The notes beneath the pieces were generated by a model. That model made no database searches. It saw only the letters and a list, made by a program, of their open reading frames with translations, and was not told the origin of the DNA. A stretch of 64,000 bases of DNA from Dictyostelium discoideum (taxonomy: Eukaryota): assembly GCA_000004695.1 (NCBI GenBank), contig CM000154.2, forward strand, positions 3,200,001 to 3,264,000, in the 5' to 3' direction. A program made the position numbers and the translations under genes. Below, piece by piece: positions 11,024-59,285 of the stretch. Position 1 is the first letter of the stretch. Each line of letters begins with the position of its first letter.

Positions 11024-12298
11024 ATGATTTCCAGTAATAATAAAACCTTTACTCTTCTCTCAAATAGAGATATAGAAATTTGTATTGATGAAAATAATAA
11101 TGAGTTTATTGAATGTAAGTTTTATTGATATAATAAATTTTTTTTTTTTTAAAATGAATGATATATCTTCAGATTATTCTAATTACAAAATATAGATGAA
11201 TATATAAAGTTTTACATCTCAATAGATAGTGATTCATTCAAATTAGATGATAATGATTGTATAGCATTAAAAGACATTAGTGATATTTCAACAAAATTAA
11301 AAAATCAATTACCTTCAAATGTAATGCTATTGGATGGATTTAATCAAAAATTAACACCAGGTTTACTACCAGATGGTATTGAATCATTATATTTAGGTGA
11401 TATTAAATATGAATTAATGATTGGTTCAATTCCTAATACTGTAACGAGTGTCTATTTATTAGATGGATTCAATCATAAATTAGTGCCAGGTATATTACCA
11501 AAAAGTGTTTATTCTTTATATTTAGGTGATATAAACCGAAAATTAAAAATTGGTTCAATTCCTAACACTGTAACGTGTGTTCATTTATTGGATGGATTTA
11601 ATCAAATATTAACACCAGGTATAATACCAGATGGTGTCAAATGGTTGTATTTACATGATATAGAACAGGAGTTGATAATTGGTTCAATTTCAAGCACTGT
11701 AAAGAATATATGTTTAGAGGATGGATTTAATCAAAAATTAACACCAGGTATATTACCAGATGGTATTGAATGGTTGTATCTACATGATATAGAACAAGAA
11801 TTAATAATTGGTTCAATTCCTAATACTGTAAAGAATGTATATTTAGAAAATGGATTCAATCAAAAATTAATACCAGGTATATTACCAAATAGTGTTGAAT
11901 GGTTGTTTTTAGGTGAAATTCAAAAAGAATTAATGATTGGTTCAATTCCTAATACTGTAATCCATGTCACTTTATTTGATGTATTTAATCAAAAACTAAC
12001 ACCAGGTATATTACCAGATAGTGTTAAATGGTTGGGTTTATATGATATAGAACAAGAATTAATGGTTGGATCAATTCCTAATACTGTAGAGGGTATCTAT
12101 TTATTTGATGGATTCAATCAAAAATTAACACCAGGTATATTACCAGAAGGCGTTGAATGTTTGTTTTTATATGATATTAAACAAGAATTAATGATCGGTT
12201 CAATTCCTAATACTGTAAAGAAAGTATTTATTTATAAAAGTTTTAAACAACAAATTGAACCTTATGTTTCTGATATTGTTAAAATAACTAAATATTAG
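11024..12298 (+). CDS. FNIP-repeat protein, short 5' form. Exons 11024..11114 and 11196..12298; exon 1 corresponds only to the tail of the B-box-family exon 1.
   Basis: Exon 1 MISSNNKTFTLLSNRDIEICIDENNNEFIEC, then GTAAGT donor and atatag acceptor, in-frame junction (phase 1) into about 14 FNIP repeats (GFNQKLTPGILPD..GSIPNTV). Confidence 0.55.
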
Positions 12299-12356
12299 AA
12301 AAAAAAAAAAAAAAAAAAAAAAAAAAAAAAAAAAAAAAAAAAAAAAAAAAAAAAAA
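12299..12356. repeat. poly(A) tract of about 58 nt
   Basis: Direct reading. Confidence 0.9.
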
Positions 12357-12934
12357 TTTTCAATCCTTAAATAAACCCAATTTATTTTTGAATTTTTAAA
12401 ACTCTTTTCAGGATTTTATTTTTAAAACCTAAGGGGGGAATTTTTTAAAATAATATTAAAAAAATAAAAATTTTGTAAAAAAAAGGTAAACCAAATAAAA
12501 AATTGGAATTCGGGGGTTAAAAAAATTTTTTTTTATTTTTTTAATCAACACTAACCACATTTCCAGGTGATTATGTTCCATGTAGTAGTATTAGTAGTGG
12601 TGGTAGTAGATCCCACAAACTTCAGCTCAACTAAAAACCATTAGATCATCAACATCCTTAGAAATATCAACAAACCTTAAATGATCACCATTATACATGA
12701 AAAATAGTTACATTGAAATGTTTATCCTCAAAATATCACTCACAAACATCAAGATTTGAATTTTTTCTAATAAAAAATAAAAAAAAATTATTATAAAAAA
12801 AAAAAAAAGAAACCATATAAATCTTTGACATATGAAAAAAAAAAAAAAAATGGTTATTTTCATCGAGAGTTTCTTTTCCATTTAACAACACGAAAAAAAA
12901 AAGTATATTAGAAAATAAAAAAAAAAAAAATGGA

Positions 12935-13100
12935 TCGCAAGATATTATTTTTTTCTTAATTTTTTAAGTGATTTTATTTTTTATTTTTTATTTTTTTATT
13001 TTACGATTTTGTTTTTTACCCCTATAAAAAATTTCTAGCCACAAAATTTTAAAAATAATTTTTTTTTTTTTTTTTTATACAAATTAATTTTCCAAACACA
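12935..13100 (+). promoter_or_regulatory. Conserved 5' flank/promoter block of the B-box-FNIP family, TATA-like ccctataaaaaatttc. Nearly identical copy at 16686..16854; partial copy at about 34030..34216.
   Basis: About 165 bp nearly identical between copies, ending at the start codon. Confidence 0.5.
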
Positions 13101-55901: not shown

Positions 55902-57939
55902 ATGATAAATGGAGAACAAACAATGGTTGAAGATGAACTTCCTGACCAAGGTAAACCAATGTCAGATGAATCAGCAGATATTGATATTAAAGATTTAAAA
56001 GTTGGTGAATCTATTGGTAGTGGTGCCTATGGTATAGTATATAGAGGTACATTGTTTAATTCAGATGTAGCAATAAAGAAAATTCAAAATGAAAAAAGTG
56101 AAAAGAATGAATTTATAAAATATTTAAAAAGAGAAGTAGCAGTTTTAAAGTAAGTTAAATTCAATATTATTATTATTATTATTAACCTTTAATAATTTAA
56201 AGTAACATTAATTAATTTTCATTATTATTATTATTATTATTATTATTATTATTATTATTATTTAGAAATATTCAACATCCAAATATAGTTCAATTTATTG
56301 GAGTTTATTATGAACCATTAGCAAGTCCATCTTTAGTAAATAGATTATTAAATTCAAGTTCAACATGGATTGTAACTGAATATATTGGCGGTGGTAATTT
56401 ACATGAAAGAATTAAAGATACTAAAAAAGATTTTCCAATTGAATTAAGAATTAAATTATCTTTAGATATTGCTTTAGCAAGTATGTTTTGTTTTTTTTTT
56501 TTTTTTTCATATAATATATTCTTTTTTTAAAATATTAATAATAAATTTAATTTTTTTAAAAAATATATAGTGGCATATTTACATAGTAGAGATATTATAT
56601 TTAGAGATTTAAAAAGTAAAAATATTTTAATTGATGATTCATCTTCACCAATTAGAGGAAAAGTTTGTGATTTTGGGTAAGTTTTTAATTTTTATTATTA
56701 TTAAAAAAAAGAATTAATATATATTAATATTTAATAAATTTTTTTTATTTTTTTTTTATTTTTAAAAGTTTTGCAAGAATTTTAAATAAAAAACAACAAG
56801 GTAATAGACATTTATCAATTTGTGGAACAGACTCTATAATGGCACCAGAATTAATATTAGGTATGGAATATGATGAATCAGTGGATATATTTTCATTTGG
56901 TGTAGTATTGTTAGAGATGATATTACGTAAAAAAGTATCGAAAGTTTTAGAGAGAGGACCACAATCAGCCTTTGAAATTGATCAAGATTCAGCACGTCAA
57001 TTAATACCAGATGATATTCCAGTACTTTATTCAGATTTAGCATTGGATTGTATAAAATATCAACCAGAGGAGAGACCAAATTTCTCACATATCATTCATG
57101 TATTGAAACAATTGACTTCATTATTCCCTGTGGTTCATACATTTGATAATCCATTATCACCAACTTCATCACCAATCACTCCACGTAAAAATTCTTTAAA
57201 TTCACCTTTTACAAAATCAATGAGAATGAACTCTTTTGATTTTAACCTATCAAATATAGTTTCTTCAACAAGCGTTCAAAATAATTTAAAAAGTCAAAAT
57301 TTAAATTTTACTTTATTAAATTTAAATCAAATTAATAATCAAGATTTAAATGAAAATAATAATAATAATATAAGTAATAATATAAATAATATAAATAATA
57401 ATAATAATAATTTAAATGATTGTAATAGTAATTTAAGTAGTAGTACAAGTACAATATATAATGATTCACAACAAACAATAATTGATGAAGATGAATTAGA
57501 TAAAGAAGAAGAAGAAAATAGAAATAAAGTTAATAATTTAAAAGAGAAAATGTTATTGGTAATGGGTGAATTTGATATTTATATTAATAAAGTTGGTAAG
57601 GAATTATTATTAGTATCGGAAGAGGATCATATCTCTCAAAAATATGATGAATGTAGAAAAGTTATCGAAATTAAAAAGGTTTTAGGTGAAGTTATTGAAA
57701 GTGATATGAGTAATAGTCAACAATCAAATACTCCAAGAAAAAATTCAAATGTTACAAATTCCCGTGTCGCTTTGTTTTTGAAATCAATGGAACGTTCACT
57801 CAATGAAATTTATTCAAGCTCTGATGTATTAAAACAAAGAATTGTAAAAGAAGATGATTTGGTTGAATCTTTATTATTGGCTAGAGTGGTTTCAAAAATA
57901 AAAAAAATTCATTTATCATCATTGGATATTAATAATTAA
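55902..57939 (+). CDS. Serine/threonine (TKL-like) protein kinase with an Asn-rich C-terminal extension. Exons 55902..56149, 56266..56480, 56571..56676, 56769..57939.
   Basis: GSGAYGIVY and VAIKK (subdomains I-II) in exon 1, HRDLKSKNILID and DFG in exon 3, APE and DIFSFGVVLLEM in exon 4. All junctions use GTAAGT/GTATGT donors and AG acceptors, with phases matching. Confidence 0.7.
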
Positions 57940-58177
57940 TCAATAACAAATAACAAATAATAATAATTTTGCGTATTTTTTTTTTTTTTTTTTCATAAAA
58001 ATATATATATATAAATTAAATATAATTTGATTAATCAAATATATAAAAAGTAAATAGTAAATAATAACAAATTGTACAATAATTAGTAAATAAAAATTAA
58101 TTTTTAAAATTAATTTTCTTTTTTTTTATTTTTTTTTTTTTATTAAAACATAAATCAGTTTACTAATACTTAATGAT

Positions 58178-59285
58178 TTAAGATGAAATATAATTTCTTA
58201 CAATGTTTACAGTATTAGGAATTGAATCAATTATTAGTTGTTGTTTAATATCATATAAATACAACGATTCAACACTATCTGGTAATATACCTGGTGTTAA
58301 TTTTTGATTGAATCCATCAAATAAATGGACATGAGTTACAGTATTAGGAATTGAACCAATTATTAATTCTTTTTTAATATTACCTATATACAACCATTTA
58401 ACGCTATCTGGTAATATACCTGGTGTTAATTTTTGATTGAATCCATCTTCAAAACAGACACTCGTTACAGTATTAGGAATTGAACCAATCATTAATTCTT
58501 GTTTAATATCATATAAATACAACGATTCAACACCATCTGGTAATATACCTGGTGTTAATATTTGATTGAATCCATCTAAGAGCATTACACTTGATGGTAA
58601 TTGATTTTTTTTTAATTTTGATAAAATATCACAATTGTCTTTGAATGCTATACAATCCTTATTATCTCCCCATGAAAGTCTATCTGTATTAATATAAAAT
58701 TTTAAATCATAATCTAAAATTGGTAATTAGAATAATGATTTAAAATTGTCAATGAGAAAAATTTTAAAATTTTTAATATGCATATTAACAAAACTTACAC
58801 TTAATAAATTCATTGTTATTTTTATCGATTTCTATTTTGAATCTATCATTACTTTTATTTAGGGAATAAATTGATTTTAAATTATTTTTAATATCATCAA
58901 TTATTTGATTATTGAAATGAATGATTTGATTATCGTATTCATTTAATTTATTTGAATTATTGATATTATTATTATTATTTAATACTATTAATGATTGTTG
59001 ATATTGTTTAATAATTTTGATTGTATCCCTATCAATAATAAAATCATCTCCATTATCATATATTTGTTGGTCATTAAATTTTAAAATTTCATTTAATTTT
59101 TCAATGGTTGTAATAATTTCATTTTCATTTTCATTTTCATTTTTATTTTCATTTTTATTATTATTATTATTAATTATAGTTGAAAGTATTTGATTATCAT
59201 TATTGATTGAAGAAGTTATAATTGTATTTATTAATGTATTATTTTCAAAGGTTGTTTGTAATTGTTTTTTAATATCTAATTCTAT
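58178..59285 (-). pseudogene. 5'-truncated B-box-FNIP family copy on the minus strand. Coiled-coil and FNIP parts are present; the B-box part is absent.
   Basis: Minus strand encodes a homolog of the family exon-1 tail (58800..59285, including (EN)n). The ~95-bp intron runs from the GTAAGT donor at about 58795 to the acag acceptor at about 58700. Six FNIP repeats follow (58178..58585). Homology stops abruptly near 59285, about 400 bp from the tRNA-Met cluster. Confidence 0.5.

Follow-up and report, generated by a model that had tools for sequence, protein, structure and literature searches.

Six copies of a B-box/FNIP-repeat gene family in different states of decay on chromosome 5 of Dictyostelium discoideum

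Proteins that combine a B-box with FNIP repeats form a family of 241 members in D. discoideum (PMC4334915), one of which, AreA (DDB_G0279871), binds Atg101 and restrains autophagy (PMC4554924). The first-pass annotation of the locus described here had taken FNIP repeats to be essentially Dictyostelium-specific and of unknown function. Neither description holds: the repeats also occur in CroV, mimiviruses, Entamoeba and Ectocarpus, that is, from giant viruses to brown algae (PMC9525666, PMC1314882), and they constitute a leucine-rich repeat (LRR) subclass with crystal structures that is present in AreA and furnishes substrate-receptor-type domains in Skp1 interactors (PMC9485057).

The six gene copies in our window (the whole 64-kb stretch of DNA that was analysed), here called A to F, share with the dictyostelid B-box/FNIP family (OG5_126643) its domain order, its phase-1 intron and its upstream block, and two of them, C and F, have been annotated as AX4 gene models. 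AreA differs in having an additional C-terminal DUF domain; Pfam searches of the window copies detected nothing beyond the B-box and FNIP domains. The CroV588 and CroV539 proteins (PDB 6NYR, 7ZAL) have the same repeats of about 22 residues, FN...(I/L)P signature and solenoid, but the window arrays alternate two LRR types in a 43-residue super-repeat and are cellular and fused to a B-box/helix module, whereas those of CroV are viral. Dictyostelium F-box/FNIP and kinase/FNIP proteins (Skp1 interactors and the fnk kinases) likewise bind partners or substrates through the FNIP LRR, but carry an N-terminal F-box or kinase where the window proteins have a B-box and helix.

Metazoan TRIM/RBCC proteins such as TRIM5alpha and TRIM72 show the same order of B-box, long helix and C-terminal ligand-binding domain, are also clustered, duplicating and pseudogene-rich, and include, as does the dictyostelid family, members tied to autophagy. 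For the N-terminal module, HHpred (PMC4554924) and Foldseek agree on TRIM, the latter weakly (E about 1e-2). The window proteins, however, end in an LRR domain and not in SPRY or NHL, and have no RING, so that no intrinsic E3 activity is expected; the resemblance would best be regarded as a functional analogy, not as membership.

Copies in the window and their architecture

A blastn search with the B unit and a six-frame phmmer search of the whole window recovered the six copies where the first-pass annotation had placed them and none beyond (Table 1). The formin gene in the window is presumably forF (DDB_G0289763), and the RNA-dependent RNA polymerase gene at the window start we take to be rrpA. 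The phase-1 GTAAG...TAG intron is kept in A, B, C, D and F. The 29-nt promoter block, previously attributed to all six units, lies only upstream of B, C and D in the window (148 bp before the start codon in B) and was not found upstream of A, E or F; it recurs upstream of paralogs elsewhere (loci L001, L004 and L005). Hallmarks of processed pseudogenes are thus missing from the copies that retain the intron or the block, and because of this retention the copies are DNA-level duplicates.

Table 1. Positions of the family copies and their parts within the window
Feature	Position	Strand	Basis or remark
Copy A mini exon 1, 30 codons	11024..11114	+	Sequence and translation; 397-aa gene call in independent assembly
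Copy A intron, GTAAGT...ATATAG, phase 1	11115..11195	+	Sequence
Copy A exon 2: cap linker, seven 129-bp double-LRR units, C-terminal tail, fully open	11196..12298	+	Pfam FNIP 244.6 bits
Upstream block of copy B, TTCTTAATTTTTTAAGTGATTTTATTTTT	12953..12981	+	Block search, 3 matches vs 0 expected
Copy B exon 1	13101..13971	+	Pfam zf-B_box 35.8 bits; AF2 model of paralog P0002
Copy B B-box	about 13152-13259	+	Pfam
Copy B long amphipathic helix	about 13275-13592	+	AF2 model of paralog P0002; hydrophobic period 3.6
Copy B (EN)n tract, then two further helices	13597-13656	+	
Copy B intron, GTAAGC...ATATAG, phase 1	13972..14034	+	
Copy B exon 2: 10.5 homogenised 129-bp units, tail	14035..15446	+	CroV588 match E=3.7e-87
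Upstream block of copy C	16706..16734	+	Block search
Copy C exon 1 and intron (17680-17741)	16855..17741	+	
Copy C exon 2: cap linker, 3 units, tail	17742..18319	+	AX4 model DDB_G0289799
Upstream block of copy D, 1 mismatch	34050..34078	+	Block search
Copy D, multiply disrupted pseudogene, 8 units; intron 35212-35273	34217..36515	+	
Copy E, fragment, first ~330 bp of exon 1	37130..37451	+	Directly 3' of formin gene
Copy F exon-1 remnant, no ATG	59323-58799	-	
Copy F intron	58798-58714	-	
Copy F exon 2: linker, 3 units, without standard C-terminal tail	58713-58178	-	Whole copy is AX4 model DDB_G0289777

The domain assignments made at first pass for both exons were borne out by profile searches. 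The Pfam zf-B_box profile (PF00643, gathering threshold 24.1 bits) scores 35.8 bits in B, 37.1 in C, 25.4 in D and 28.5 in E, and exon 2 scores 358.5 bits against FNIP (PF05725, cut-off 21 bits). In B and C the B-box starts at residue 18, with no RING among the Pfam matches, and eight predicted zinc ligands with cross-brace spacing can be placed at C18-x2-H21-x8-C30-x2-C33-x4-C38-x3-C42-x6-H49-x2-H52. The AF2 model of paralog P0002 shows a B-box (residues 16-55), a single 104-residue helix (59-162), a disordered EN tract, and a cap and LRR solenoid with pLDDT above 90. A B-box, coiled coil and (EN)n tract had been proposed for exon 1; the B-box and the (EN)n tract stand, and the helix has a hydrophobic period of 3.6 residues (p<0.0005), the heptad period of 3.5 not being significant. 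All hydrophobic runs in exon 1 are shorter than 12 residues, and the proteins have neither a signal peptide nor a membrane segment. Foldseek returned CroV588 (6nyr, 1e-11), 7zal (2e-6), other LRR receptors and, weakly, TRIM72 (1e-2) and a second TRIM E3 ligase structure (about 1e-2). In sequence, the CroV588 crystal-structure protein matches exon 2 of B with the E-value given in Table 1.

Exon 2 does consist of FNIP repeats as described, but in A, C, D and F it also opens with a non-repeat linker. This conserved cap linker of about 45 residues (W-x-x-KFY...AFKDNCNILSKLKNQLP) between exon 1 and the repeats is standard in the family: it is found in all database paralogs, its columns are near-invariant even with D. 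purpureum and D. citrinum members included, and it is absent from B. Repeat units are spaced exactly 129 bp in all arrays except at a 10-bp insertion in D. The FGxxFN double-phenylalanine motif appears only in alternate repeats, as (D)GFNQ, the others reading GDIKQEL; by its sequence the array is a variant of the FNIP subclass that still falls within PF05725.

Although treated at first as a six-copy family, the window copies are not monophyletic and belong to the much larger family described above. Copies B and C are 98.6% identical over exon 1 and intron, 97.5% over the promoter and 96.9% over the 3' flank. B diverges by 4.5-6% from a cluster lying some 40-90 kb distant; E and F stand further from B than that cluster does, and D stands no nearer. 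Annotated paralogs from D. discoideum match exon 1 at 73-90% protein identity; both B-box and FNIP are present in P0001-P0007 and P0105, and a paralogous cluster (L001/L004) comprises five tandem genes. At the D. purpureum formin-ortholog locus (L002) only the formin is common with the window, without FNIP neighbours, and the cluster therefore cannot be dated by synteny. Loci L003, L004, L005, L008 and L009, considered as the same region in other strains, proved to be other family sites whose flanks do not match the window; the strain comparison of L003 with L009 shows heavy divergence and rearrangement.

Lesions and open reading frames

As the first-pass annotation had stated, the copies are genuine paralogs that have decayed to different degrees, which fits birth-and-death turnover. 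The frameshift reported in C is a 40-bp deletion at 17243/17244 flanked by 7-bp direct repeats (ACAATTA). Copy D is both nonsense-mutated and frameshifted, as claimed: an AAT-microsatellite insertion of 64 bp (34973-35036) introduces a stop and shifts the frame, a Trp codon has become a stop at 35849-35851, and 10 bp are inserted near 36026-36035; in addition the third zinc ligand is changed from Cys to Tyr (34301-34303). Copy E is indeed a small fragment, a partial exon 1 with two 2-bp deletions, and F is the 5'-truncated minus-strand copy described, its damage affecting both ends. Judged by their sequences, C, D, E and F are dead, three of them clearly so. The AX4 models of C and F (DDB_G0289799, DDB_G0289777) are drawn around the damage, the former bypassing the lesion with an 'intron' of about 700 bp.

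The two remaining copies have open frames, and both are structurally rearranged; a complete standard architecture is found in none of the six. The description of A as truncated but open is right as to its 397 open codons and the loss of B-box and helix, but its exon 1 still has the ATG and some 25 codons from the end of a standard exon 1. The result is a correctly spliceable FNIP-only gene, which a second annotation, made on an independent assembly, calls identically (397 aa, exactly 11024-12298). Copy B, designated intact, does give 760 codons in frame when its two exons are joined; its exon 2, however, begins within a repeat (DIKQEL...), the conserved LRR N-cap and first LRR having been lost through a 195-bp in-frame deletion relative to C. 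The notion of a single live copy is not supported: B lacks its cap, and A is also an open, spliceable gene. The open frame of B is poor proof of function: because B and C differ by just 1.5-3%, B could be a young neutral relic, with about 1.3 stops expected by arithmetic from a 5.8% stop-creating fraction. Pairwise dN/dS among the copies, from small counts, lies anywhere between 0.1 and 2.5 and fails to tell live copies from dead ones.

Two readings that would change this picture were weighed. It is hardly credible that faulty sequencing or assembly of a region rich in repeats and in AT produced the disruptions, even though the first frameshift in D sits in an AAT microsatellite, an error-prone context, and two intergenic stretches of the window show clustered mismatches against the independent assembly. 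That assembly (GCA_054883475.1) is base-identical to the window across copies A to E, the sole difference being one base in a poly-T at 34134; since it carries the lesions of C, D and E identically, these are not sequencing errors. The loss between direct repeats in C is a mutational rather than a base-calling signature, and D has four independent lesions, so that for copies A to E the error reading is effectively refuted. That the whole cluster is a graveyard, with A and B equally non-functional and free of stops simply through youth or luck, seems rather doubtful. It would agree with the incomplete architecture of all six copies, with the missing cap linker of B, conserved in every paralog, and the dN/dS of 1.0 at framework positions in its array, and with the missing promoter block of A. 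Copy A also departs from conserved repeat positions at least as often as pseudogene D (1.57 vs 1.0 per unit), although these positions were defined on the B-like subfamily and the count fails to separate A from pseudogenes. On the other hand, A is ~16% diverged from its nearest relatives and still preserves its ATG, both splice sites, intron phase 1 and all 397 codons; if 4% of its divergence were neutral, the chance of zero stops would be 0.045. Its framework dN/dS is 0.4-0.5, and B deviates at 0.2 per unit, no more than intact paralogs.

Possible roles of the encoded proteins

Canonical LRR concave-face positions, picked beforehand, are six of the seven most variable positions in the repeats. 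Their dN/dS is 1.9 compared with 0.48 elsewhere (56 units from intact genes; range 1.5-3.2 vs 0.3-1.0), a figure in which pairs are non-independent and synonymous sites few, and in which the contrast could be exaggerated by gene conversion of the framework. The first-pass annotation had suggested a recognition or self-nonself family. Proteins that lack both a signal peptide and a membrane segment are unlikely to serve in cell-surface allorecognition; the concave-face variability leaves a diversified intracellular binding repertoire possible.

We consider it unlikely that the family is a rapidly diversifying, TRIM5- or NLR-like non-self recognition repertoire, in which the LRR face is under positive selection and pathogens, giant viruses or social conflict drive birth-and-death. 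Such a repertoire would account for the elevated concave-face dN/dS, and the family is huge and expanded in a lineage-specific manner, with pseudogenes and fragmented copies likewise at other loci and in other strains (L005; L009). Amoeba-infecting giant viruses are rich in FNIP proteins, and the FNIP gene chtB influences social cheating. The dN/dS values, however, come from repeat units rather than orthologs or populations, exposed positions vary in any LRR protein, surface allorecognition does not suit proteins of this topology, and the sole functional datum for a B-box/FNIP protein is the housekeeping-type regulation of autophagy by AreA. A literature search found no paper linking FNIP, Dictyostelium and positive selection, and nothing for DDB_G0289849, DDB_G0289799, DDB_G0289777 or DDB_G0289763.

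The window most likely holds one chromosome-5 cluster, in the course of turnover, of a massively expanded dictyostelid family with a B-box, a helix of ~100 residues, an N/E-rich linker and FNIP LRRs, whose products would act as adaptors. These would be cytosolic, RING-less and TRIM-like, the B-box and long helix mediating self-association and the LRR solenoid binding a protein partner through its concave face, the site of nearly all sequence variation. The function of AreA may not be transferable to the window copies, because AreA has an extra domain that is absent here. We would regard it as quite improbable that the family gives amoebae their counterpart of the intracellular immune sensors of TRIM or NLR type, in the form of dimeric adaptors in the cytosol with hypervariable concave faces that feed into autophagy or xenophagy. 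If it were, the concave faces would have been diversified by unequal crossing-over in the 129-bp array together with positive selection, and the clusters would be the trace of an arms race against intracellular bacteria or FNIP-bearing giant viruses.

For annotation, the models DDB_G0289799 and DDB_G0289777, together with ACTFIT_001203 and ACTFIT_001208 of the newer assembly, run across pseudogene lesions and need flagging. The window shows the ordinary turnover of a catalogued and very large gene family, in a genome that has been annotated. New copies arise by DNA-level duplication of promoter and gene with the intron kept, in tandem for at least B and C; the 129-bp array expands, contracts and homogenises; and copies are lost through microhomology deletion, microsatellite slippage, point nonsense mutation and truncation. 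The cluster thus illustrates how such a family turns over, and the variability of the concave face provides a testable handle on whether its 241 genes form a diversified binding repertoire.

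The six copies, their lesions and their surroundings

A blastn search of the window with the B unit recovered all six copies of the B-box/FNIP family proposed in the first-pass annotation at its coordinates, and no seventh came up in a six-frame phmmer search whose queries were exon 1 and a set of three divergent FNIP proteins. The exon assignments were confirmed by HMM search, exon 1 of B, C, D and E scoring above the Pfam B-box threshold and exon 2 giving 132–358 bits for FNIP. The intron (GTAAG...TAG, phase 1) is kept in A, B, C, D and F. A 29-nt block lies 148–167 bp 5' of the ATG in B, C and D only (3 hits versus 0 expected), and also precedes paralogs at three further loci, of which one is from D. 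cf. discoideum.

Features of the window, with positions in nucleotides from its start
Feature	Position	Description
RdRP gene	48-3356	cut by window start; C-terminal part also scores PF22600 (poly(A)-polymerase-like palm), 28.3 bits
Copy A	11024-12298	
Copy A, exon 1	ATG at 11024	30 codons: start plus last ~25 codons of standard exon 1
Copy A, intron	11115-11195	correct, phase 1
Copy A, exon 2		complete: cap, seven units, tail
Mismatch cluster	12357-12543	17 clustered mismatches, small indels
Copy B	13101-15446	13101-13971 spliced to 14035-15446, 760 in-frame codons
Coding-like stretch	15507-16265	between B and C; Ser/Thr-rich, open in two different frames
Echo of family C-terminal coding sequence	15509-15535	ATGTTTCCAAAAGTTTTAAACTACAAA
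Copy C	16855-18319	
Mismatch cluster	24899-25180	~37 clustered mismatches, small indels
Copy D	34217-36515	
Copy D, lesion 1		Cys-to-Tyr at third zinc ligand
Copy D, lesion 2		64-bp AAT-microsatellite insertion bringing TAA into frame
Copy D, lesion 3	35849-35851	Trp-to-stop
Copy D, lesion 4		10-bp insertion breaking otherwise exact 129-bp unit spacing
Copy E	37130-37451	
tRNA-Ser(gga) call	39486-39563	ARAGORN; within proline-rich FH1 coding region of formin gene
Copy F	59323-58178	minus strand
Partial tRNA-Met	~59513-59560	second copy of 5' half, about 130-170 bp from tRNA-Met
tRNA-Met	59686-59760	plus strand
Non-LTR retrotransposon	59966-64000	~200 bp downstream of tRNA-Met
Retrotransposon ORF1	59966-61174	402 aa
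Retrotransposon ORF2	61168 to window end	endonuclease and reverse-transcriptase domains

Copy C is 98.6% identical to B over exon 1 and the intron, and its frame is shifted by the loss of 40 bp between a pair of ACAATTA direct repeats, which reads as a signature of slippage or microhomology. Copy D carries four lesions in total. Of exon 1, copy E retains the first ~330 bp, in which 2 bp have been deleted at each of two places. Copy F has no in-frame ATG; it starts at B-equivalent position ~328, still has the intron, the linker and three units, and stops short of the standard C-terminal tail. That such disruptions are sequencing errors was the alternative named in the first-pass annotation, and it fails against the independent D. 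discoideum assembly GCA_054883475.1 (CM142511.1, ~3.295–3.335 Mb), which aligns with window positions 6816-47448 at 99.4–99.8% identity and in which copies A–E, lesions included, are base-identical apart from one base in a poly-T at 34134; copy F lies outside the recovered region, and the comparison of copies refers to A–E. The second assembly differs in nearby low-complexity intergenic DNA, which points to independent sequencing. The lesions are real. Two low-complexity intergenic clusters of mismatches against that assembly are likely to be low-quality sequence in one of the two; the genes between them are identical in both.

Several reference gene models are built across these pseudogene lesions. 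The AX4 model DDB_G0289799 (251 aa) is copy C with the frameshift bypassed by an 'intron' of ~700 bp at 17083-17791, DDB_G0289777 (331 aa, AX4) is copy F with an invented start, its residues 3–163 matching the window at 99.4%, and ACTFIT_001208 (218 aa; 10001-11486 of the independent-assembly segment L007) runs the 3' end of D and fragment E together.

The window itself is gene-dense chromosome of an ordinary kind (G+C 15–33%), and the proteins that match it most closely are from D. discoideum. Beside the family copies it carries genes for an RdRP, an S28 peptidase, HEAT-repeat and BRCT proteins, a formin of 1220 aa and a kinase. The tRNA-Ser(gga) call inside the formin gene is probably a false positive. 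The partial tRNA-Met lies immediately upstream of the point at which copy F is truncated. The retrotransposon beside the complete tRNA-Met gene shows the tRNA-targeted (TRE-type) arrangement that is usual in Dictyostelium.

An FNIP-only gene and a copy without its cap

Copy A had been described as 5'-truncated but open. The frame is indeed open, but mere truncation does not describe it, since an ATG, a miniature exon 1 and a phase-1 intron are all present. Its product is 397 aa long, and a newer annotation independently predicts exactly this gene. A is the most diverged of the copies (~16% in exon 2), about 6.5% of random substitutions in it would create a stop, and were as little as 4% of its divergence neutral, the probability of finding none would be 0.045. 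The family promoter block is absent from A. Of the copies in the cluster we judge A the most likely to be alive, as a gene for an FNIP-only protein.

Copy B, by contrast with its earlier description as intact, has lost 195 bp in frame relative to C, corresponding to the cap and the first LRR. The first part of exon 2 in A, C, D, F and all database paralogs is a conserved stretch that is not a repeat, W-x-x-KFYIYIE...IAFKDNCNILSKLKNQLPS-VMLLDGFNQ, two columns of which are at least 90% invariant in an alignment that includes D. purpureum and D. citrinum members. For the paralog DDB_G0289849, AF2 models this stretch as β-strands capping the solenoid. Exon 2 of B instead begins at ...ATATAG/GTGATATTAAACAA, within a repeat, and at the deletion junction the end of the intron shares TAGG-type microhomology with the "L-G-D-I-K" stretch of a repeat. 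B has the longest array (10.5 units), which is strongly homogenised, with adjacent units 92–93% identical and framework dS of 0.04–0.05. Its open frame is little evidence on function, because B has diverged from C by merely 1.5–3% across promoter, exon 1, intron and 3' flank. With B lacking its cap and A open, the framing of the cluster around one live copy does not hold. The coding-like stretch downstream of B has no Pfam match and is merged with B in the newer annotation into a 925-aa model reading past the stop codon of B; the short echo of C-terminal coding sequence at its start is found downstream of C too.

Family relationships

The six copies are not a family of their own. Exon 1 of B differs by 4.5–6% from three genes of another chromosome-5 cluster, of five tandem family genes (L001/L004), as against 4–8% from D; its distances to F and E are 8% and 9%, so that it is nearer to that cluster than to either. 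The B-box/FNIP family counts 241 members in D. discoideum, and 381, 206 and 55 in A. subglobosum, P. pallidum and D. fasciculatum respectively (PMC4334915). Only B and C form a young local pair. Other loci and other strains likewise have fragmentary copies (L005 7283-8920; L009). The earlier birth-and-death reading is reasonable. The L001/L004 cluster also holds a 450-aa gene (L001 7628-9447, equal to L004 19945-21764), an apparent product of exon shuffling in which an unrelated, non-B-box N-terminal region is joined at the standard splice acceptor to a family exon 2 of cap linker and three units. At a site adjoining Pho88 and PEX11, family genes of 1061 and 427 aa are present in one D. discoideum assembly where another has a row of 123–354-aa fragment calls (L009 7426-11864 versus L003 6208-13314), which suggests, in an alignment of highly diverged sequences, that the integrity of copies differs between strains.

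Protein architecture and the concave face

FNIP repeats are a subclass of LRR (PMC9525666) that occurs also in Entamoeba, mimivirus, CroV and Ectocarpus (PMC9525666, PMC1314882); they are neither Dictyostelium-specific, as had been supposed, nor of unknown nature. Exon 2 of B matched the CroV588 crystal structure with E=3.7e-87, and the modelled solenoid matched CroV588 and CroV539, followed by Toll, TLR and other LRR receptors (Foldseek). The unit in the window is a 43-residue LRR pair, DGFNQKLTPGILPDSVxxLxLG plus DIKQELIIGSIPNTVxxVxLx. The N-terminal half features a B-box with 8/8 Cys/His ligands, followed by a predicted single amphipathic helix of ~104 residues (period 3.6, p<0.0005). A disordered (EN)n tract comes next, and after it two short predicted helices. 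Foldseek returned TRIM72 and another TRIM ligase weakly (E about 1e-2), as HHpred had pointed to TRIM for AreA (PMC4554924), and the window family proteins have no RING (Pfam), signal peptide or membrane segment. On these grounds the architecture may work like that of a RING-less TRIM, an oligomerising B-box/helix module with a C-terminal binding domain, yet by analogy and not as members of the TRIM family. AreA, which combines B-box and FNIP, is a binding partner of Atg101, and autophagic flux rises when AreA is lost (PMC4554924); FNIP LRRs are common among Skp1 interactors as substrate-receptor-type domains (PMC9485057). The FNIP gene chtB affects social cheating.

Concave-face positions (17, 18, 20, 38, 39 and 41) were set beforehand from the LxxLxL pattern, and variation was scored over 31 window units and also over 56 units from genes with open frames. 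These positions are six of the seven most variable. Pooled dN/dS was 1.9 at concave positions versus 0.48 elsewhere, and 1.5–3.2 versus 0.3–1.0 within single genes, values that compare repeat units and not orthologs, from non-independent pairs with few synonymous sites, and whose contrast framework gene conversion would exaggerate. Between copies dN/dS was ~1, on small counts. The pattern fits a diversified binding surface. The self/non-self role raised in the first-pass annotation is not upheld as stated, and we consider an immune-like intracellular recognition repertoire unlikely.

The family to which these genes belong is already known and annotated, in the genome of a model organism. What is added here is that B lacks its cap, that A is an intact FNIP-only gene, which signatures the mutations bear, that reference gene models are flawed, and that variation is concentrated on the LRR concave face.
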